Position numbers and translations under genes: made by a program. Positions 2,289-38,325 of a stretch of 64,000 bases of DNA are shown here, in pieces; the stretch's first letter is position 1, and each line of letters opens with the position of its first letter. Source of the DNA: Escherichia phage vB_EcoM_G2540-3; the sequence record MK327944.1. One strand, given 5' to 3'. The notes under the pieces are model-generated. The model ran no database searches and was not told the origin of the DNA. It saw nothing but the letters and a program-made list of their open reading frames with translations.

Positions 2289-3707
2289 TTATGGATAGGT
2301 ATAAATGATACCAGTTTCTAAAGCAGTTTTATGAATGATGTATCCATTGCGCGATTCTTGAACATCAACTTCTGGATAGTCTTTCATCATCTTCTGAAGA
2401 GTGTAACGATGCAGGTAGTATTTACTATCTGGATCTTCAGTTTTCCAATCTTTACCTTCTTCAGTCATTTTTTGGATTTCATCCATAACCCACCAACCGC
2501 ACCAGATATAAGCTGAGCTACGATGTGGAAGAGGATGAACATAAGGTAATTCACCTTCTGGTTCCGGAGCAACTTTATCAGTCACTTGAACTTGACCTGT
2601 GGCTTTAACTGTTTTACTATCATAGTCAGTTGCTGTAACGACAGCAGTAACTTCAATAGTTTGACTTCCAATAGATGAGGTATCAACAGTATATACGTTA
2701 GTTGACCCTTCCACAGGAGAAGAATCTTTCTTCCATGAGTAAGTAATTTGTGCTGCTTCAGGTGCGCCATTAACATTAGCAGTAAATGTAGCCGAAGCAT
2801 CTTGCTGAACATTAATAGAAGGAGGAGTCAATGTAACCTGTGGATTCATTGTCTTCTTATTAACTGTCAATGATACTTCATTGGAAGTAACTTCCTTTTC
2901 ATTATAATTTTCTGCAGTTACTTGGGCTACGCATTTAATTCTTTTTACTCCACTTGTAGTTGGAGTATAGTTAAATGTAGAGTTAGTTTCTCCACCAACT
3001 TGTGAATCATCTACATACCACTGATACGTAGCAGACGCTCCGTCAGGTTGAGAAGCTAATGCAGCAGTAAATTGAACCGGGGTTCCAATTACTCCAGCAG
3101 CAGGACTAGCAGGAGTTACTGCCAAGGTAGTTGTCTGTGTCTTTTTATTAACTGTCAATGATACTTCATTGGAAGTAACGCTCAGTGCATCATAATCTGT
3201 CGCAGTTACTTGAGCTACACACTTAATTTTTTTAACTCCGCTTGTAGTAGGAGTATAATTGAATGTAGCAGAAGTTGCTTCGCTCACAGGAGAACCGTCA
3301 ACGTACCATTGATACGTAGCAGATGCGCCCGATGGCTGTGAAGCTAAGGCAGCAGTAAATTCAACGGCTGTTCCGATTACTCCTTCTGGAGGACTATTAG
3401 GAGTTACAGCTAAAGTAGTTGTCTGTGTTTTATTTTGAACTGTAATAGTTGTACTAATTTCAGCTGTTTCAGCTTCAGAATCAGGAATAGTATTTGTTGC
3501 AACTACCTTAATAGTCTTTTGACCAGCAGGTCCTTTTAATACATAATCAAAAGTTGCTGCTGATCCTTCTTGGGGAGCATTATCTACGCTCCAAGCATAG
3601 GTAATAGTTCCACCTCCAGTTTCACCACTGGGTGTAGCAGTAAACTGCTTGGTTTCATCAATAACCCCTGTTGGTGTTTTAGGAGTTATATCAACTGTAA
3701 AAGCCAT
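2289..3707 (-). CDS. hoc: Highly immunogenic outer capsid protein Hoc with tandem Ig-like domains
   Basis: 472 aa with repeated Ig-like modules (…TYQWYVD…FNYTPTTSGVK.IKCVAQVTA…); position between rnlB and inh as in T4. Confidence 0.85.
   Translation of the reverse strand: MAFTVDITPKTPTGVIDETKQFTATPSGETGGGTITYAWSVDNAPQEGSAATFDYVLKGPAGQKTIKVVATNTIPDSEAETAEISTTITVQNKTQTTTLAVTPNSPPEGVIGTAVEFTAALASQPSGASATYQWYVDGSPVSEATSATFNYTPTTSGVKKIKCVAQVTATDYDALSVTSNEVSLTVNKKTQTTTLAVTPASPAAGVIGTPVQFTAALASQPDGASATYQWYVDDSQVGGETNSTFNYTPTTSGVKRIKCVAQVTAENYNEKEVTSNEVSLTVNKKTMNPQVTLTPPSINVQQDASATFTANVNGAPEAAQITYSWKKDSSPVEGSTNVYTVDTSSIGSQTIEVTAVVTATDYDSKTVKATGQVQVTDKVAPEPEGELPYVHPLPHRSSAYIWCGWWVMDEIQKMTEEGKDWKTEDPDSKYYLHRYTLQKMMKDYPEVDVQESRNGYIIHKTALETGIIYTYP
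2858..3433. repeat. Two tandem ~288-bp repeats (approx 85-90% identical) inside hoc encoding duplicated Ig-like domains
   Basis: Motif ttattaactgtcaatgatacttcattggaagtaac recurs at 2858 and 3146; protein shows two near-identical 96-aa modules. Confidence 0.8.
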
Positions 3708-4397: not shown

Positions 4398-4446
4398 AAT
4401 ATTTCCTCAGTATAAATATAGATATATTTATTACTCGGAAAATAGT

Positions 4447-5064
4447 ATGTACCACTTTGTATATGAAACAACAAATCTAATAAATGGTAAAAAGTATATA
4501 GGAAAACACTCTACTGATGACTTGAATGATGGTTACCTTGGTTCCGGTAAGGCAATTCAGCAGGCTATAAAGAAATATGGTGAAAACAATTTCTCTAGAA
4601 CAATACTAAAAGAGTTTAAAACTTCCGAAGAAGCGTACATGTATGAAGAAGAAATTATAACTCCTGAAATAATAAAAAGCAAAAATTATTATAATATGAA
4701 ACCTGGCGGAATTGGTGGAATTGTTATGACTACAGAGGTTATAGCAAAGATGAAAGAATCTTCCGCTAAGAGATTTGAAAACTCACCGGGCACGGTATTA
4801 GGTACAACTTGTTACACTAATGGAACTAAAAATATTTTTATTAAGCCTGGAGAACTTGTTCCAGAAGGATTTGTAAAAGGGATGGTTCATCCTAATAGAA
4901 AGTCCAGAAAAGGATGTAAAGTCAAACCGACTACCACAGGAACTTTTTGGGTCAATAATGGTGCAATAAATAAATTAATACAACCAGACGGTATTATTCC
5001 CGACGGATTTATTAAAGGTCGTCTCATGAAAAGAGATTCTAAAGGCAAATTTAGTAAGGCATAA
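4447..5064 (+). CDS. segE: GIY-YIG homing endonuclease, SegE-like
   Basis: N-terminal GIY-YIG module (YHFVYETTNLINGKKYIGKHS…); located between inh and uvsW exactly where T4 segE lies. Confidence 0.8.
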   Translation: MYHFVYETTNLINGKKYIGKHSTDDLNDGYLGSGKAIQQAIKKYGENNFSRTILKEFKTSEEAYMYEEEIITPEIIKSKNYYNMKPGGIGGIVMTTEVIAKMKESSAKRFENSPGTVLGTTCYTNGTKNIFIKPGELVPEGFVKGMVHPNRKSRKGCKVKPTTTGTFWVNNGAINKLIQPDGIIPDGFIKGRLMKRDSKGKFSKA

Positions 5065-5066
5065 TT

Positions 5067-6575
5067 ATGGATATTAAAGTACATTTTCACGACTTCAGTC
5101 ATGTACGCATCGATTGTGAAGAGAGCACGTTCCACGAATTAAGAGATTTCTTTTCGTTTGAGGCCGATGGATATAGATTTAACCCTCGCTTCAGATATGG
5201 CAACTGGGATGGACGAATCCGTCTTTTAGATTATAATCGTCTTCTTCCGTTTGGCTTAGTCGGGCAAATTAAAAAGTTCTGTGATAACTTTGGCTATAAA
5301 GCCTGGATTGACCCGCAAATTAACGAAAAAGAAGAATTATCAAGAAAAGATTTTGATGAATGGCTTTCTAAATTAGAAATCTATTCAGGAAATAAAAGAA
5401 TTGAACCGCACTGGTATCAAAAAGATGCAGTGTTCGAAGGATTAGTTAATCGTCGTAGAATTCTTAATCTTCCAACATCCGCAGGTAAATCTTTAATTCA
5501 AGCTTTGCTTGCACGTTATTATTTGGAAAATTATGAAGGTAAAATTCTTATCATTGTTCCAACAACTGCTCTGACAACTCAGATGGCTGATGACTTCGTC
5601 GACTATCGTTTATTCAGTCATGCAATGATAAAGAAAATTGGTGGCGGAGCATCAAAAGATGATAAATATAAAAATGATGCACCAGTCGTTGTTGGTACAT
5701 GGCAAACTGTAGTTAAACAACCGAAAGAATGGTTCTCACAGTTTGGAATGATGATGAATGATGAATGTCATCTTGCTACAGGAAAAAGTATTTCATCTAT
5801 CATATCAGGTTTAAATAACTGCATGTTCAAATTCGGTTTGTCTGGTTCATTACGTGATGGCAAAGCCAATATCATGCAGTATGTTGGAATGTTTGGTGAA
5901 ATATTTAAGCCAGTAACGACTTCTAAATTAATGGAAGATGGACAAGTAACTGAGCTAAAAATTAATAGTATTTTTCTTCGCTATCCAGATGAGTTCACTA
6001 CTAAATTAAAGGGAAAAACTTATCAAGAAGAAATAAAAATTATTACTGGGCTCAGTAAAAGAAATAAATGGATCGCTAAATTAGCTATTAAGCTTGCGCA
6101 AAAAGATGAAAACGCTTTTGTCATGTTTAAACATGTATCACATGGTAAAGCTATTTTCGATTTAATTAAAAACGAATACGATAAAGTTTATTACGTATCA
6201 GGGGAAGTTGATACAGAAACCCGCAATATAATGAAAACCTTAGCTGAAAACGGTAAAGGAATAATTATAGTAGCTAGTTATGGTGTATTTTCTACTGGTA
6301 TTTCAGTTAAAAATCTGCATCACGTTGTTTTAGCACACGGTGTTAAATCAAAAATCATTGTATTACAAACAATCGGTCGTGTATTACGTAAGCATGGTTC
6401 TAAAACAATCGCAACAGTCTGGGACCTCATAGATGACGCGGGTGTAGTTTCTAAATCAAAAACATCTTCTAAAAAATACTCGCATTTAAACTATCTTTTA
6501 AAACATGGACTTGATCGTATTCAGCGTTATGCTGATGAAAAGTTTAATTATGTGATGAAAGAGGTTAAACTTTGA
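5067..6575 (+). CDS. uvsW: UvsW RNA-DNA/DNA helicase
   Basis: 502 aa, SF2 helicase motifs (LNLPTSAGKS Walker A, DECH box); N-terminus MDIKVHFHDF. Confidence 0.92.
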   Translation: MDIKVHFHDFSHVRIDCEESTFHELRDFFSFEADGYRFNPRFRYGNWDGRIRLLDYNRLLPFGLVGQIKKFCDNFGYKAWIDPQINEKEELSRKDFDEWLSKLEIYSGNKRIEPHWYQKDAVFEGLVNRRRILNLPTSAGKSLIQALLARYYLENYEGKILIIVPTTALTTQMADDFVDYRLFSHAMIKKIGGGASKDDKYKNDAPVVVGTWQTVVKQPKEWFSQFGMMMNDECHLATGKSISSIISGLNNCMFKFGLSGSLRDGKANIMQYVGMFGEIFKPVTTSKLMEDGQVTELKINSIFLRYPDEFTTKLKGKTYQEEIKIITGLSKRNKWIAKLAIKLAQKDENAFVMFKHVSHGKAIFDLIKNEYDKVYYVSGEVDTETRNIMKTLAENGKGIIIVASYGVFSTGISVKNLHHVVLAHGVKSKIIVLQTIGRVLRKHGSKTIATVWDLIDDAGVVSKSKTSSKKYSHLNYLLKHGLDRIQRYADEKFNYVMKEVKL

Positions 6576-7264
6576 ATTATAAATTAATATATGATAATTT
6601 AATTAATAGAGCCCAAAATCGGGCTCGCCTTAATGGATACACTGAAACACATCATATAATTCCTAGATGTATGGGTGGTACAAATGATAAGTGTAATTTA
6701 GTAGAACTAACGGCTGAAGAACATTTTATAGCCCATAAACTTTTAGCTAAAATTCATCCAAACCATTACGGTATAATTAAAGCTGTTATATGTATGGGGA
6801 TGAATTCAAATACTCATGAAAGACACGTTAATAAATCTTACGCATGGGAACGTCGTAAAATGGCAGAACTTCAATCCGGCGAAGGTAATCCATTTTACGG
6901 AAAACACCATACGGAAGAACATAAACAATATATGTCAAAACTCATGAAAAGTCGTCCAATTACATGGGGAAATAAAATTAGTAAAACTAAAAGAATGAAC
7001 CCAACGAAATGGACTGAAGAAGCTAAAAGATTACATTCAATCAATCAATCGGGTAAAAATAACGGCATGTATGGAAGGAAACATTCCGCTAAATCTATTC
7101 AGAAAATTAAAGATAACATGCCAGATAATTCAGGAGCTAATAACCCAGCTGCTAAACCTATAGAAGTAAATGGTGTTAAGTATAAATGTATGAAAGATGC
7201 TTCTAAAGCTACTGGATTATCAATGTACAAACTAAGAATACTTAGAAAAACAGTTAATTTATAA
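6572..7264 (+). CDS. HNH homing endonuclease, MobE-like, apparent TTG start overlapping uvsW stop
   Basis: HNH motif HHIIPRCMGG…NLVELTAEEHFIAH; N-terminus nearly identical in pattern to MobE at 33443-34177; repeated NUMOD-like G.HH..E/KH motifs. Confidence 0.8.
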   Translation: MNYKLIYDNLINRAQNRARLNGYTETHHIIPRCMGGTNDKCNLVELTAEEHFIAHKLLAKIHPNHYGIIKAVICMGMNSNTHERHVNKSYAWERRKMAELQSGEGNPFYGKHHTEEHKQYMSKLMKSRPITWGNKISKTKRMNPTKWTEEAKRLHSINQSGKNNGMYGRKHSAKSIQKIKDNMPDNSGANNPAAKPIEVNGVKYKCMKDASKATGLSMYKLRILRKTVNL

Positions 7265-7289
7265 GGGCTTCGGCCCTTTGGAGAAAAAG

Positions 7290-7520
7290 ATGTTACTAAA
7301 ATTTAAACAATTTCTTTATGAAGCTTCTATTGATGAATTTATGGGTAAAATTGCCTCTTGTCAAACATTAGAAGGTTTAGAAGAACTTGAAGCTTATTAT
7401 AAGAAAAGAGTCAAAGAAACTGAATTAAAAGATACTGATGACATCTCTGTGAGAGATGCTTTGGCAGGAAAAAGAGCTGAATTAGAAGATTCAGACGATG
7501 AAGTAGAAGAAAGCTTTTAA
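7290..7520 (+). CDS. uvsW.1: UvsW.1 small protein
   Basis: 76 aa from ATG at 7290 with SD ggagaaaaag; the track ORF begins at an upstream TTG. Confidence 0.75.
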   Translation: MLLKFKQFLYEASIDEFMGKIASCQTLEGLEELEAYYKKRVKETELKDTDDISVRDALAGKRAELEDSDDEVEESF

Positions 7521-7575
7521 ATTAAAAAAGGCCCAACCAAAAAGGAAGGGCCAAAACTATAGACTAAAGGTCACA

Positions 7576-7743
7576 CTATAGCAAAAGTTGTGTTTCATTT
7601 AATTGTTCTTCCGAACTTTCTGAAACTGGTAGTTCTTTAATGTAATTATAGCAAGGCCCAGGATGTACAGGACCTTTGTCTGTTTCAACAACCAATGCAG
7701 AATCAATTGGAGTTTTACAGACAACACAAATCTTATCTGACAT
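7576..7743 (-). CDS. Small Cys-rich protein (uvsY.-2 position), 55 aa
   Basis: Hand-translated ATG ORF MSDKICVVCKTPIDSALVVETDKGPVHPGPCYNY…; below the 60-aa track cutoff. Confidence 0.5.
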   Translation of the reverse strand: MSDKICVVCKTPIDSALVVETDKGPVHPGPCYNYIKELPVSESSEEQLNETQLLL

Positions 7744-7866
7744 GATTGTCTCCTCTGAATTATATATCTATTTATAACCCCATCTTAAAACGCATTTCTT
7801 GTACACGCTTTAAACATGCTTCCATTTTTGCTAAAAGTCTAAATACTTCTTTATAATTTGTCATAT

Positions 7867-31679: not shown

Positions 31680-32770
31680 CGTTATGTTCGATTGAGCTCG
31701 CTAATTCTCAACCCGTTCTCTTATGAACTGCTACATATTACTATGCAGACCAGACTATATCACAATCCCAGAGGGATTCTCCCCATTTCGAGTCGCTTGA
31801 CCCTACGTCCGAAGACTAGTCGTTGAACCTTGCTTTGCAATTGTCGCCGTGCCATCGTTTATATGTTGATGGTGATAAATCTTTCTTATCACAATATGGA
31901 CAATTCAATTGAATTCTATTTGGATTTAATTTACATCTGTCATTATGTTTTAGATAAAATCCAGGACCTTTACCAATGTGACCGCAGAAATCACATGTGA
32001 TTTCTTTTTGTGCAGGATGGGTCCCGTTCTTAACCATTTCTAATGTTTTTGCTGATGTTCTTTTCTTATGGTCTTCTGACAAGAAATGATGTGAACTGTC
32101 ATTTACCCGTTTTGATTGAGTTTCTGACTGCATTTTACCACCGCAAAATACATGAGTACCTTCTTTTATAGCTGCAATATTGCGTTCTTTAACTTTTGCA
32201 ATATGCTCAGCTTGTTGAAAATTATGTATACCTAATGCAACTCTATTTAAATTAGATTTACGCTGTATTTCACCGTCTAAAAGATGAAATGTACCATTTT
32301 CTATCTTAGATTTAATAGAGGCAATATTTTTAGCTCGTACTTCAGGGATATTAAAAATCTGGATTTCTCTAGATTTTGCGGCTTTAGAAGCTAATTCAGA
32401 AATTTCTTCAGGAGAATATTTCATTCTAAGCTTTATAGCATGACAAGCCTGGTAATCTTTTTGAGCTAAATGTATATCATAATGTTCCTGTATAGAAAGG
32501 CACATCAAATTATCTAAATCATTATTTTCACGGTTACCGTCTTTATGATGGATTTCGTATGTTCTTCCATCGGAATCTTTAGGTATAGGTCCGTTAGCAT
32601 CTATCCAAATTTTTCTATAGTTCAATTGTGCATCCTCTTAAAAGTATAATCATATTTATATTATACTAATTAAAGGTGCAAGCAAAACCTTGGCTGCTAG
32701 TTTTCCTATAAAGGACTTTCCAGCAATTAAAGGAGTTTTCGATAAACGTTACCGTTTAAAGGCGCATTTT
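31680..32770 (-). mobile_element. Group I intron in nrdB (about 1091 bp) carrying I-TevIII
   Basis: nrdB frame interrupted by an in-frame stop right after …FYVSFA; exon 1 ends in U, intron ends in G, junction restores a Cys codon as in other R2 proteins. Confidence 0.65.
31816..32625 (-). CDS. I-TevIII: Intron-encoded HNH homing endonuclease I-TevIII (full length, apparent TTG start)
   Basis: 269 aa, HNH motif EIHHKDGNRENNDLDNLMCLSIQEH, C-terminal Zn-finger-like CxxC pairs; inside nrdB intron. Confidence 0.8.
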   Translation of the reverse strand: MNYRKIWIDANGPIPKDSDGRTYEIHHKDGNRENNDLDNLMCLSIQEHYDIHLAQKDYQACHAIKLRMKYSPEEISELASKAAKSREIQIFNIPEVRAKNIASIKSKIENGTFHLLDGEIQRKSNLNRVALGIHNFQQAEHIAKVKERNIAAIKEGTHVFCGGKMQSETQSKRVNDSSHHFLSEDHKKRTSAKTLEMVKNGTHPAQKEITCDFCGHIGKGPGFYLKHNDRCKLNPNRIQLNCPYCDKKDLSPSTYKRWHGDNCKARFND

Positions 32771-33446
32771 ACGCAAAAGATACATAAAAACGAATAGCTT
32801 CTAAGGCATTAATAACGTGTAAACAGAGGTAAAGAGACTTCATTAAAGCACGTTTAGCTTCGGCTTCTTGTTTAATAGCTCGGTTTAAACGAAAGTCGGC
32901 ATCAGGAGATTCTTTAGCTAGTTCTACAAATTCTTTAGCATTTTCCCATTCACGGGTTTTAACCAAGACATCATCATAATAACGTCCAATGGACTCAGCG
33001 CGTTTCATAATATCTTCATCTAATACAATCTCATCAAATACCTTTGATGGGTCAGTATAAAGATTTCGCATGATATGAGTATATGAACGGCTGTGAATAG
33101 TTTCACTAAAAGTCCATGTAGCAACCCATGTATCAAGACTTGGGTCTGAAATTAATGACATAAGTACTGCAGACGGTGCACGACCCTGAATGCTATCCAA
33201 AAGTGATTGATACTTCAGGTTATTAGTAAAAATATCTTGCTGATACTGAGGAAGCTTGTTAAATTGTGCAGCATCCATCATTAAGTTTACTTCTTCAGGA
33301 CGCCAGAAAAATGACAACTGCTTTTCGGTTAAATCTTCAAAAACTTTATGACGTTGAATATCATAACGCGCAATACCAAGACCTGAACCAAAAAACATAG
33401 GTTCTTTTAAAACATCAACTGGATTTGTATTAAAAACTGTGCTCAT
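32771..33446 (-). CDS. nrdB: Ribonucleotide reductase small subunit NrdB, exon 1
   Basis: MSTVFNTNPVDVLKEP… through …ALEAIRFYVSFA; start ATG at 33446 overlapping mobE stop. Confidence 0.75.
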
Positions 33447-34177
33447 AAATTTTTCCTCTTTAAAATTCTGCCGTGTTTCCAACCTGGCGGTATAATATCA
33501 TCTTTACCTATAAGCGTGCATTCACTTCCATTATTAATCCATTTCTTACCGCGGATTCCTTTATAATCTCTTGGTTTTATTTTGTCAAACTTTGCATCAA
33601 GTTGATATGACCATCTAAATCCATAAGCATATTGAAATTTACCCTCGGCACAATATTTGATATTTGACCCGTTTCCATTAACTGACCGGGACGCTGCCGC
33701 AATAGAGTGAAAGGTTTCTATGAAATCCCCATCTAATGAGAATTTATGTATTTCTACAGATGGGCACGCATATCTATTCACGTTAGATACATGCTGTTTA
33801 GTTTCGTTTTTATGATGCTTGCCTAGCATCCCTTTAGGATGAGGATTATTTTTCCAATATTTCTTAAAGAACTCAGAATTAGCTTTAGCAAATAATTTTC
33901 TGTGTAAGCTGTACAATCTGTTATTAATTCTATTGCCAGCTTTATCTGTTGCCATTAACGTTAACGCAGAGGCAAGACCAAAATGGCCTTCATTTATCTT
34001 ACATAGTAATAGATGAGCTATAAAATGTTCTCTGGCTGTTAATTCAACTAAATTTTCCTTATCATCAGAACCTCCCATACATTTAGGGATTATATGATGT
34101 GTCTCTTTATATTCTAGTAAAGATTCCCGAGCCTGAGCTCGGGAAATTAGGTCGTTATAGATTTTTTGATAATTCAT
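33443..34177 (-). CDS. mobE: HNH homing endonuclease MobE
   Basis: 244 aa, HNH motif HHIIPKCMGG…NLVELTAREHFIAH; sits between nrdA and nrdB as T4 mobE. Confidence 0.85.
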   Translation of the reverse strand: MNYQKIYNDLISRAQARESLLEYKETHHIIPKCMGGSDDKENLVELTAREHFIAHLLLCKINEGHFGLASALTLMATDKAGNRINNRLYSLHRKLFAKANSEFFKKYWKNNPHPKGMLGKHHKNETKQHVSNVNRYACPSVEIHKFSLDGDFIETFHSIAAASRSVNGNGSNIKYCAEGKFQYAYGFRWSYQLDAKFDKIKPRDYKGIRGKKWINNGSECTLIGKDDIIPPGWKHGRILKRKNL

Positions 34178-37309: not shown

Positions 37310-38325
37310 CATTATGTTCAGATAAGGTCGTTAATCTTACCCCGGAATTATATCCAGCTGCATGTCACCATGCAGAGCAGACTATATCTCCAACTTGTTA
37401 AAGCAAGTTGTCTATCGTTTCGAGTCACTTGACCCTACTCCCAAAAGGGATAGTCGTTAGGCATTTATGTAGAACCAATTCCATTTATCAGATTTTACAC
37501 GATAAGTAACTAATCCAGACGAAATTTTAAAATGTCTAGCTGCATCTGCTGCACAATCAAAAATAACCCCATCACATGAAATCTTTTTAATATTACTAGG
37601 CTTTTTACCTTTCATCTTTTCTGATATTTTAGATTTAGTTATGTCTGAATGCTTATGATTAAAGAATGAATTATTTTCACCTGAACGATTTCTGCATTTA
37701 CTACAAGTATAAGCAGAAGTTTGTATGCGAACACCGCACTTACAAAACTTATGGGTTTCTGGATTCCAACGCCCGTTTTTACTTCCGGGTTTACTGTAAA
37801 GAGCTTTCCGACCATCAGGTCCAAGTTTAAGCATCTTAGCTTTAACAGTTTCAGAACGTTTCTTAATAATTTCTTCTTTTAATGGATGCGTAGAACATGT
37901 ATCACCAAACGTTGCATCAGCAATATTGTATCCATTAATTTTAGAATTAAGCTCTTTAATCCAAAAATTTTCTCGTTCAATAATCAAATCTTTCTCATAT
38001 GGAATTTCTTCCAAAATAGAACATTCAAACACATTACCATGTTTGTTAAAAGACCTCTGAAGTTTTATAGAAGAATGGCATCCTTTTTCTAAATCTTTAA
38101 AATGCCTCTTCCATCTCTTTTCAAAATCTTTAGCACTTCCTACATATACTTTATTGTTTAAAGTATTTTTAATCTGATAAATTCCGCTTTTCATAAATAC
38201 CTCTTTAAATATAGAAGTATTTATTAAAGGGCAGTCCTACAATTTAGCACGGGATTGTCTACTAGAGAGGTTCCCCGTTTAGATAGATTACAAGTATAAG
38301 TCACCTTATACTCAGGCCTCAATTA
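37310..38325 (-). mobile_element. td group I intron (1016 bp) carrying I-TevI
   Basis: 5' end reads UAAUUGAGGCCUGAGUAUAAGGUGACUUAUACUUG… after exon …CUUGGGU; 3' end …AUG; length 1016 nt as recalled for T4 td intron. Confidence 0.9.
37457..38194 (-). CDS. I-TevI: Intron-encoded GIY-YIG homing endonuclease I-TevI
   Basis: 245 aa, MKSGIYQIKNTLNNKVYVGSAKDFEKRWKRH… with C-terminal Zn finger and HTH. Confidence 0.95.
   Translation of the reverse strand: MKSGIYQIKNTLNNKVYVGSAKDFEKRWKRHFKDLEKGCHSSIKLQRSFNKHGNVFECSILEEIPYEKDLIIERENFWIKELNSKINGYNIADATFGDTCSTHPLKEEIIKKRSETVKAKMLKLGPDGRKALYSKPGSKNGRWNPETHKFCKCGVRIQTSAYTCSKCRNRSGENNSFFNHKHSDITKSKISEKMKGKKPSNIKKISCDGVIFDCAADAARHFKISSGLVTYRVKSDKWNWFYINA

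Follow-up and report, generated by a model that had tools for sequence, protein, structure and literature searches.

A predicted MobE-like HNH homing endonuclease gene at the 3' end of uvsW in Escherichia phage vB_EcoM_G2540-3

In the MobA/gene 60 system an HNH gene travels with altered adjacent host sequence, and the alteration is thought to spare the carrier self-cleavage. This pairing of T4 MobA with the gene 60 bypass element was reportedly the subject of a PNAS article by Bonocora and colleagues in 2011. MobE, another HNH enzyme of T4, is active in experiments and nicks one strand, and a hairpin at the 5' end of mobE is a mapped terminator that stops about 30% of transcripts (PMC2988022). 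For SegE, which targets uvsW, activity has likewise been shown by experiment (PMC2988022 Table 1). Several mob-like HNH genes have already been counted in T6 (Petrov et al. 2010).

The window analysed here, a stretch of 64,000 nucleotides of phage vB_EcoM_G2540-3 (MK327944.1), carries an ORF of this type directly behind uvsW. The overall explanation that we favour, and hold to be probably correct, is a free-standing MobE-like HNH homing gene that forms a mobile cassette with a recoded uvsW 3' end, is expressed late, at a low level and coupled to uvsW, and homes into endonuclease-free uvsW. The genes concerned are the following.

4447..5064, + strand: segE, GIY-YIG homing endonuclease (Pfam SegE_GIY-YIG; T4 and RB14 annotation), on the other side of uvsW
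5067..6575, + strand: uvsW helicase, 502 aa (Pfam UvsW_N, ResIII, Helicase_C), the host gene and likely target in endonuclease-free phages
6572..7264, + strand: predicted HNH homing endonuclease ORF, 230 aa (ORF list, Pfam, PHROG, BLASTP match to MobE)
7290..7520, + strand: uvsW.1, 76 aa, ATG at 7290 after GGAG (Pfam UvsW-1, E 1.7e-30; RB14 annotation)
33443..34177, - strand: mobE, nuclease-domain paralogue with the same 5' hairpin
37457..38194, - strand: I-TevI, encoded in the td intron, probably related to the predicted C-terminal DNA-binding module of the endonuclease

Family, architecture and distribution of the endonuclease

The endonuclease ORF stands alone between conserved genes, is oriented like its neighbours and lies outside any intron or intein. 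Its product shares 47% identity over 134 aa with the MobE of the window (BLASTP, E 9e-34). A sequence-only reading of this DNA had proposed that the N-terminal ~75 aa are paralogous to MobE, which agrees with the identity of 47 of the first 75 residues, and the motif quoted there (ETHHIIP.CMGG...NLVELTA.EHFIAH) is found in the endonuclease. PHROG 655, 'homing endonuclease', is the best family of the endonuclease (E 3.9e-60) as well as of MobE. The HMM search that had been proposed for NUMOD domains placed NUMOD3 (PF07460) in two stretches of the protein with 51.8 bits, above the Pfam cut-off of 20.4 (E 7.6e-14). The Pfam HNH model (PF01844) remained below its gathering score (16.2 versus 21.4 bits, E 0.012), and MobE, with 20.2 bits, too falls just under this cut-off. 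HNH catalytic residues, whose lack had been named as an objection, are kept: H28, N42, H51 and H55 are invariant in an alignment of 58 homologues, and H27 is also present in the endonuclease. The AlphaFold model (mean pLDDT 88.8) predicts a strand-strand-helix arrangement at residues 25-28, 43-46 and 48-61.

Towards the C-terminus the similarities lead to I-TevI. The I-TevI_DNA-bd family (PF20987) matched weakly, with 14.7 bits against a Pfam cut-off of 27, PDB entry 1I3J was found by phmmer at E 0.0059, and the top Foldseek match of the model was again 1i3j, with a probability of 1.00 but an E-value of 0.065. Residues 158-222 matched the I-TevI of the window at E 1e-5 (tblastn). The predicted architecture is a MobE-type HNH domain in residues 1 to ~85, two NUMOD3 repeats and a C-terminal I-TevI-like helix-turn-helix DNA-binding module. 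As judged from sequence, the protein is a member of the T-even Mob (MobE-like) clade, encoded by a free-standing HNH homing endonuclease gene of predicted activity. The ORF is intact, and values of dN/dS between 0.05 and 0.31, even among near-identical alleles, show purifying selection.

The statement that T4 has no endonuclease gene at this place was correct, as nothing lies between uvsW and uvsW.1 in NC_000866. The gene nevertheless cannot count as novel, since records of T6 (AP018814, MH550421), PST, ACG-C40, G28 and others already list it at this site. At 97-99.7% DNA identity it occupies the same site in T6, PST and 48 of ~499 Tequatrovirus records, the latter being those which bear the junction and the 48 carriers lacking phylogenetic independence. 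Full-length orthologues with 53-70% aa identity adjoin uvsW in six further genera; all of the full-length orthologues found by tblastn (74/74) lie beside uvsW, and examples from each of seven Straboviridae genera display the same placement. Annotated orthologues, with 53-99.6% aa identity, include T6 EcT6_00183/BBF63601, PST 'mobD' YP_009153782, SP18 gp197 and Rgz1 gp217; they depart from the gene of the window by point changes alone. The exact protein of the window is already contained in public assemblies (P0076, 100% identity). A polymorphism of carriers and non-carriers exists within Dhakavirus as well. Because the same gene is found in the same place in T6 and dozens of T4-like phages, it is an ordinary selfish element that is already known and annotated, although our literature searches found no paper characterising the uvsW-adjacent endonuclease. 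A scan of IMG/VR yielded two near-identical copies only; the remaining matches were to distantly related NUMOD3 or HNH proteins in unrelated surroundings.

Insertion into the end of uvsW and the recoded flank

The sequence-only reading had the endonuclease gene invading the uvsW/uvsW.1 junction as a free-standing element. A free-standing MobE-like HNH gene that is missing from T4 and present in ~10% of Tequatrovirus is also what we find. However, the insertion point is not in the spacer but ~20 nt inside the uvsW coding sequence, where the following elements can be distinguished.

6436..6484, + strand: strongly diverged uvsW block with the loop DDAGVVSKSKTSSKKYSH versus DDCGVKPKSANTKKKYVH, candidate region for the cleavage site or an immunity polymorphism
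6486..6571, + strand: recoded, mostly synonymous uvsW 3' flank of 86 bp, which travels with the endonuclease gene
6555..6575, + strand: left copy of an imperfect direct repeat, the surrogate uvsW tail M-K-E-V-K-L-stop, matching the right copy at 12 of 21 nt
6561..6564, + strand: GAGG Shine-Dalgarno of the endonuclease, 7 nt 5' of the TTG and inside the surrogate uvsW tail codons
6572..6575, + strand: TTGA start/stop overlap (endonuclease TTG, uvsW TGA), with NTGA at this place in the orthologues of six other genera
7244..7264, + strand: right copy of the repeat, the resident uvsW tail K-T-V-N-L-stop, now the last endonuclease codons and identical to the endonuclease-free uvsW 3' end
7265..7276, + strand: resident GGGCTTCGGCCC UUCG-loop hairpin, found right after the uvsW stop in endonuclease-free phages and here shifted by 693 nt

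The element thus appears to bring a surrogate uvsW tail, together with GAGG and TTG, and to take the resident tail as its own C-terminus. The surrogate tail is similar to the end of uvsW in ESCO10 and PM2, and the GAGG is missing from the endonuclease-free uvsW tail AAAACAGTTAATTTATAA.

That the 230-aa HNH ORF follows uvsW directly, with its TTG overlapping the uvsW stop, had been noticed before and is confirmed: the TTG occupies positions 6572-6574 and the TGA of uvsW positions 6573-6575, hence TTGA is common to both genes. In the genera compared this overlap always comprises 4 nt, while the orthologues start with ATG (Jiaodavirus, Gualtarvirus), GTG (Moonvirus, Bragavirus) or TTG (Tequatrovirus, Dhakavirus, Gaprivervirus). 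Homology to MobE starts at residue 1. The next in-frame ATG corresponds to Met34, and a start at this codon would delete the catalytic residues His27/His28. With this comparative support, the TTG, GTG or ATG codon overlapping the uvsW stop is taken to be the true start of the endonuclease.

All 48 endonuclease-carrying records contain the recoded 86-bp flank, which was detected in none of the ~450 endonuclease-free Tequatrovirus records. Carriers and non-carriers diverge over no more than the final ~130 bp of uvsW, the sequence before and after this stretch being 97-100% identical. The diverged block at 6436..6484 is shared by the 48 carriers and four endonuclease-free records (OES_C-1/2/3, LH2). 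In these four the carrier-type tract is present in its distal part alone, which is expected of conversion tracts ending short of the gene. Within Dhakavirus, ESCO10 and the endonuclease-free VR5 agree at 95-100% up to uvsW nt ~1320, at ~75% in the last 175 bp and at 100% in uvsW.1, and similarity to VR5 sets in again 23 nt ahead of the endonuclease stop. ESCO10 and PSD2002, which are diverged elsewhere, match at 95-98% in the flank and the endonuclease gene. Dhakavirus repeats both the flank pattern and the insertion anatomy of Tequatrovirus. These comparisons argue for one mobile cassette composed of the endonuclease gene and the recoded uvsW 3' stretch (the last 86 bp or more). The diverged flank could also be donor sequence that is merely carried along and has no role in immunity.

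Expression signals, homing and alternative explanations

Two further elements bear on the expression of the endonuclease gene.

4411..4418, + strand: late-promoter consensus TATAAATA upstream of segE, pattern match only
6609..6626, + strand: GC-rich hairpin GAGCCC-AAAATC-GGGCTC in endonuclease codons 13-18 (fold z-score -3.7), a probable expression attenuator placed like the internal terminator of mobE

TATAAATA at 4411..4418 is the sole exact late-promoter match on the + strand from 4400 to 7600 and is therefore the likely source of a late transcript comprising segE, uvsW, the endonuclease gene and uvsW.1. No late-promoter consensus was present on the + strand between 4418 and 7264. A scan of the region for sigma-70 promoters returned fewer sites than in shuffled sequence, and no + strand terminator was found in the same scan. 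Near-matches to the late promoter at 6578 and 7181 and a TGCTT box at 7198 were discarded as not conserved or not convincing.

The position of the hairpin was examined by taking the strongest 28-nt local fold of each ORF. In 8 of 8 orthologues and in MobE this was the hairpin, always at nt ~32-56 and with a different sequence each time, the hairpin-region sequences being completely turned over between orthologues. The hairpin of the endonuclease gene is not followed by a U-tract and hence does not represent a canonical terminator.

For the favoured explanation the following course can be proposed. The endonuclease gene would have no promoter of its own and would be transcribed late, along with segE and uvsW. 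As the sequence-only reading had proposed, the coupling to uvsW and the weak start codon would keep translation low, with ribosomes ending at the uvsW stop restarting on the overlapping TTG. The conserved hairpin in codons 12-18, which had escaped that reading, is a third likely attenuator. During mixed infection the enzyme may nick or cut endonuclease-free uvsW within roughly the last 140 bp; its C-terminal module would bind close to the insertion point, with the HNH domain acting upstream. In recombination-dependent repair the carrier genome would then serve as the template for both the endonuclease gene and the recoded flank. The insertion, together with the recoded or diverged flank, would shield the carrier allele.

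A more far-reaching proposal is tentative, and we attach slightly more doubt than confidence to it. It assumes that a composite cassette, consisting of the recoded uvsW 3' end, the surrogate stop, ribosome binding site and start, and the endonuclease gene, moved between at least seven Straboviridae genera and rebuilt the uvsW tail each time, that the recoded flank is an immunity determinant, and that the hairpin in codons 12-18 is a clade-wide cis-regulator of MobE-type genes. No paper describing the composite-cassette, flank-immunity or hairpin-regulator points for the uvsW endonuclease gene was found; analogous cases are known in MobA with the gene 60 bypass and in the mobE terminator.

Strong purifying selection, the retention of the same site in seven genera and the tight coupling to a recombination helicase operon could also be expected of a domesticated or co-opted nuclease, which would no longer be selfish but kept for the benefit of the phage, for example by excluding T-even competitors or by working with UvsW in recombination. 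We regard this as unlikely, given that ~90% of Tequatrovirus genomes are without the gene, that it assorts with neither the genomic background nor segE, and that the linked conversion-tract signature is the product expected of active homing. Furthermore, a decayed copy exists: the gene is frameshifted in BF15, and hence can decay. As competitive exclusion is the expected phenotype of homing anyway, domestication is only a partial rival. The same frameshifted copy, together with the sub-threshold Pfam HNH score, would fit an inactive relic that no longer cuts and persists since its deletion would harm the uvsW tail or uvsW.1 expression. The element indeed supplies the stop and tail of uvsW, so that imprecise loss would be harmful. 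A relic is nevertheless very improbable in view of the intact state of 47 of the 48 Tequatrovirus copies and of all orthologues examined, the dN/dS values of 0.05-0.3 with near-identical alleles included, and the invariant catalytic residues.

Database records gave rise to another explanation, an endonuclease encoded in a group I intron which splits a single uvsW gene. The G28 record is worded 'group I intron endonuclease', the Metamorpho record joins the helicase CDS across the gene, and the T4 RefSeq entry presents uvsW and uvsW.1 as one ORF of 587 aa. The T4 fusion is known to be a sequencing error (PMC1524935), and endonuclease-free phages have uvsW and uvsW.1 as two ORFs. The insert amounts to exactly the 693-nt ORF with no non-coding DNA around it, which leaves no room for a ribozyme. 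A search of 6000-7800 at E-values up to 1 revealed no Rfam intron or other relevant RNA family, only a chance miRNA match (E 0.27). Since, in addition, 75 of 75 UvsW.1 homologues were found stand-alone, we consider an intron extremely improbable. The idea that the endonuclease insertion itself created the uvsW/uvsW.1 split found no support: these homologues, from a search that reaches fairly close relatives only, are all of ~75 aa and include no fused form. Nolan et al. saw the two genes split in every T4-like genome that they studied (PMC1524935).

Comparison with described homing systems

The practical value of these results lies mainly in annotation, and the endonuclease gene opens no long-standing question. 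It is a tidy, putative example of a homing gene whose insertion lies just within the 3' end of a conserved gene, the tail of which it rebuilds with its own translation signals hidden in the new codons. Several GenBank records contain annotation faults, in which the gene is truncated, is named intron endonuclease or mobD, or is bridged by joining uvsW to uvsW.1.

T4 SegE, encoded between inh and uvsW, shares with the endonuclease the host gene, the signature of a diverged adjacent flank, the presence/absence polymorphism and independent assortment. In our data segE assorts independently of the HNH gene, and genomes carrying segE possess a diverged uvsW 5' end. The two enzymes differ in that they belong to unrelated nuclease families and are encoded at opposite ends of uvsW. 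As segE adjoins its opposite end, uvsW stands between two selfish elements and offers a convenient natural system for studying co-conversion and marker exclusion in T-even crosses.

I-TevI has a probably related C-terminal module, a NUMOD3-type helix plus helix-turn-helix, although the similarity is weak. By analogy, the binding module of the uvsW endonuclease may sit near the insertion site while the catalytic domain acts at a distance. In contrast, the catalytic domain of I-TevI is of the GIY-YIG type and intron-encoded, whereas that of the uvsW endonuclease is HNH.

T4 MobE, free-standing between nrdA and nrdB, has a homologous nuclease domain and belongs to the same PHROG 655. Both genes are cassettes that apparently lack a promoter and run in the same direction as the host operon, and both carry a GC-rich hairpin at the same 5' coding place. 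This hairpin has a U-tract and acts as a terminator in mobE, but lacks the U-tract in the uvsW endonuclease gene. Further differences concern the C-terminal region, with NUMOD1 in MobE versus NUMOD3 and the I-TevI-like helix-turn-helix here, the start codon, which is ATG in MobE versus a TTG coupled to the upstream stop, and the host site, here the 3' end of uvsW.

As in the MobA/gene 60 case, an HNH gene and altered adjacent host sequence seem to constitute one cassette, the insertion being located inside a conserved replication or recombination gene or at its end. Unlike in that case, translational bypass is not involved; the linked sequence consists of a recoded 3' end and a surrogate five-codon tail, and the protection it may confer is putative.

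A MobE-like endonuclease gene starting at the uvsW stop codon

The sequence-only reading had placed a MobE-like HNH gene with a TTG start behind uvsW. It described a real feature essentially correctly, and its interpretation was broadly right. The relevant features are:

6572..7264, + strand: open reading frame of the HNH gene, 230 aa
6572-6574, + strand: endonuclease start codon TTG
6573-6575, + strand: uvsW stop codon TGA
upstream neighbour: uvsW (Pfam UvsW_N, ResIII, Helicase_C)
downstream neighbour: uvsW.1 (Pfam UvsW-1, E 1.7e-30)
33443..34177, minus strand: MobE
37457-38194, - strand: I-TevI, the td intron endonuclease, 245 aa

The tetranucleotide TTGA is common to both genes, which confirms the overlapping start. 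The 4-nt overlap is kept in every genus examined (7 genera), with TTG in 3, GTG in 2 and ATG in 2 of them; TTG is thus the true start. Initiation at the next ATG, Met34, would remove His27/His28.

The HNH protein and the window's MobE share 47% identity over 134 aa (E 9e-34, alignment from residue 1), and 47 of their first 75 residues are identical, which bears out the proposed N-terminal relationship. Both proteins fall into PHROGs family phrog_655 'homing endonuclease' (E 3.9e-60 for the HNH protein). Pfam searches yielded two NUMOD3 motifs (51.8 bits versus a cut-off of 20.4), while the HNH match at residues 23-44 stayed below threshold. The HNH catalytic residues are present: H28, N42, H51 and H55 are invariant across 58 aligned homologues, and H27, C33 and G35 nearly so. 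In the AlphaFold model (mean pLDDT 88.8) strands 25-28 and 43-46 and helix 48-61 surround them. At the C-terminus, a weak Pfam match to the I-TevI DNA-binding domain (residues 193-218) is accompanied by matches of residues 157-216 to 1I3J (E 0.006) and to the window's I-TevI (tblastn E 1e-5). Taken together, these data argue for a modular endonuclease that joins a MobE-type HNH domain at the N-terminus, through NUMOD3 linkers, to a helix-turn-helix tail of the I-TevI type. The I-TevI domain is the closest relative of solved structure for this C-terminus, and I-TevI itself is also encoded in the window. Downstream of mobE, the nrdB frame (32769-33482, - strand) is listed as an ORF of 237 aa, consistent with a T4-type nrdB group I intron, which is known in T4.

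Insertion into the uvsW tail and the linked flank

As the sequence-only reading had stated for T4, no gene is found between uvsW and uvsW.1 in T4 and RB14. Alignment with these two loci showed that the native uvsW 3' end now forms the final 18-21 nt of this ORF and the hairpin behind it, GGGCTTCGGCCC. The ORF ends in AAA ACA GTT AAT TTA TAA (K-T-V-N-L-stop), and the window's uvsW in AAA GAG GTT AAA CTT TGA (K-E-V-K-L-stop). The element therefore lies about 20 nt inside uvsW; the suggested invasion holds as to the inserted gene, but the site is not the uvsW/uvsW.1 junction itself. The element adds exactly 693 nt net, and the copies of an imperfect 21-nt direct repeat (12/21 identical) lie on either side of it. 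The left end of the element supplies a surrogate uvsW tail, which contains the endonuclease TTG and, 7 nt 5' of it, GAGG. The layout is the same in Dhakavirus, where homology to the endonuclease-free phage VR5 begins again 23 nt ahead of the endonuclease stop; there the endonuclease ends in the resident K-Q-V-D-L and uvsW in K-E-V-Q-I. In PM2 both tails read K-E-V-K-L.

At 7265-7276, after the uvsW-type stop and ahead of the ribosome-binding site of uvsW.1, there is a UUCG-tetraloop hairpin, GGGCUUCGGCCC. Another hairpin, GGCCC...GGGCC, follows uvsW.1 (region 7520-7560), where a bidirectional terminator is predicted in T4-like phages. The T4 RefSeq entry NC_000866.4 (2678-4441) still contains a fused 587-aa uvsW ORF, the product of a known sequencing error that affects one base of the uvsW stop (TTAATAAGC there versus TTATAAGGGC in all other phages).

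When carriers of the gene are compared with non-carriers, uvsW shows 95-100% identity up to about 6436 and about 62-83% from there to its end; identity returns to 97-100% in uvsW.1. Two stretches make up the diverged tract:

6436-6484: non-synonymous block, DDAGVVSKSKTSSKKYSH against DDCGVKPKSANTKKKYVH
6488-6560: ten substitutions, almost all synonymous

The 86-bp piece 6486-6571 occurs in exactly 48 records, all of them carriers and each match directly adjoining the gene, and in no endonuclease-free record. The block 6436-6484 was found in the 48 carriers and in four endonuclease-free records, OES_C-1, OES_C-2, OES_C-3 (about 2560-2700) and LH2, which combine it with the non-carrier last 73 bp. 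In these four, conversion may have stopped before it reached the gene, or the gene may have been lost afterwards by recombination. The pattern is replicated in Dhakavirus. The carrier ESCO10 is near-identical to VR5 before uvsW nt ~1320; identity falls to about 75% in the final 175 bp of uvsW and reaches 100% in uvsW.1. ESCO10 and PSD2002, both carriers, have 95-98% identity in flank and endonuclease gene but are diverged in other parts. With its sharp right and ragged left boundary, the region bears the signature of a conversion tract that began at a break in the 3' part of uvsW and ran on across the endonuclease gene.

Distribution and proposed mode of spread

A megablast search of 50,697 phage records with the ORF retrieved the full-length gene from 48 (96.7-99.7% identity), among them T6, Yersinia phage PST, ACG-C40, G28, G8 and UFV-AREG1. 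The overlap with the helicase gene 3' end recurs in all of them, the gene is mostly annotated as 'homing endonuclease', and T6 and PST share the window's order inh, segE, uvsW, endonuclease gene, uvsW.1, uvsY.-2. Relative to ~499 junction-bearing records found with a T4 empty-site probe, prevalence is roughly 10%. The window belongs to a Tequatrovirus other than T4 (best 20-kb match 97%), and its exact protein is already in public assemblies (P0076). The gene is thus a previously annotated member of the T-even Mob family. Three mob-like genes and one other HNH gene were reported for T6 (Petrov et al. 2010), and a 2010 review of mobile elements was restricted to the T4 set (PMC2988022); our literature searches found no paper characterising this endonuclease. 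All 74 full-length orthologues detected by tblastn lie beside uvsW.

Orthologues outside Tequatrovirus (genus; identity to the window protein; phages)
Jiaodavirus; ~69%; PSE-D1, Metamorpho
Moonvirus; 66%; NM4.3
Dhakavirus; 57-59%; ESCO10, PSD2002
Gaprivervirus; 56.5%; SP18
Gualtarvirus; 55%; Rgz1
Bragavirus; 53%; PM2

A frameshifted copy in BF15 (2501-3190; annotated ORF 588 nt, two tblastn pieces) reflects either gene decay or a sequencing error. Public annotation is inconsistent: the SP18 record starts at an internal ATG and loses the HH motif, that of Metamorpho labels the gene GIY-YIG and links the uvsW and uvsW.1 reading frames over it, in PST it is called mobD, and G28 (MG867727) calls it a group I intron endonuclease.

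An intron-encoded endonuclease was excluded, since no intron model and no spare non-coding DNA were found and every relative has uvsW.1 as a gene separate from uvsW. That the gene is a dead relic is unlikely in view of the invariant catalytic residues and of dN/dS values of 0.05-0.31, within genera and between them alike, which place the protein under purifying selection. Domestication is less likely, being disfavoured by the 10% prevalence and mosaic assortment. In the proposed mechanism, the gene would be co-transcribed late with uvsW, and its product would nick or cleave uvsW alleles that lack the insertion, somewhere in roughly their final 140 bp. If the protein works as I-TevI does, its C-terminal module would bind near the insertion point and the HNH domain act upstream. 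Repair of the break by the phage recombination machinery would copy the cassette, and the insertion and recoded flank would protect the carrier.

Expression signals and comparison with mobE and segE

4411-4418, + strand: T4 late-promoter consensus TATAAATA, before segE
4447-5064, + strand: segE (GIY-YIG), directly upstream of uvsW
6609-6626, + strand: GC-rich hairpin GAGCCC-AAAATC-GGGCTC, codons 13-18 of the endonuclease gene, fold z-score -3.7
34107-34146, - strand: corresponding mobE hairpin

Within 4400-7600, the late-promoter consensus before segE is the only exact + strand match upstream of the endonuclease gene; none lies between the two. The gene thus resembles the cassettes without a promoter of their own that have been described for mobE and others (PMC2988022). 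In 8/8 orthologues examined and in MobE, no other 28-nt stretch of the ORF folds as strongly as the one at nt ~32-56. Stem sequences are unrelated between orthologues and the encoded amino acids vary; the hairpin is conserved in structure, variable in sequence, and at the same codons. The T4 mobE hairpin has been mapped as a weak intrinsic terminator stopping ~30% of transcripts (PMC2988022). The window hairpin has the same position but is not followed by a U-tract, so it is no canonical terminator. From coupled re-initiation, a non-ATG start in 5/7 genera and the hairpin we infer deliberately low endonuclease expression.

Two independent homing endonuclease genes enclose uvsW, segE on its 5' side and the HNH gene at its 3' end, and they assort independently. 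SegE targets uvsW (PMC2988022 Table 1). The uvsW 5' ends of segE carriers and segE-free genomes share 44/57 and 44/60 identical positions, and identity is about 75% across the initial ~120-180 bp (11 aligned genomes; window 5067-5250). This divergence mirrors the uvsW 3' flank signature. Insertion in the uvsW tail, a linked recoded flank, a conserved hairpin and occurrence in seven genera are tidy, conventional homing-endonuclease biology.
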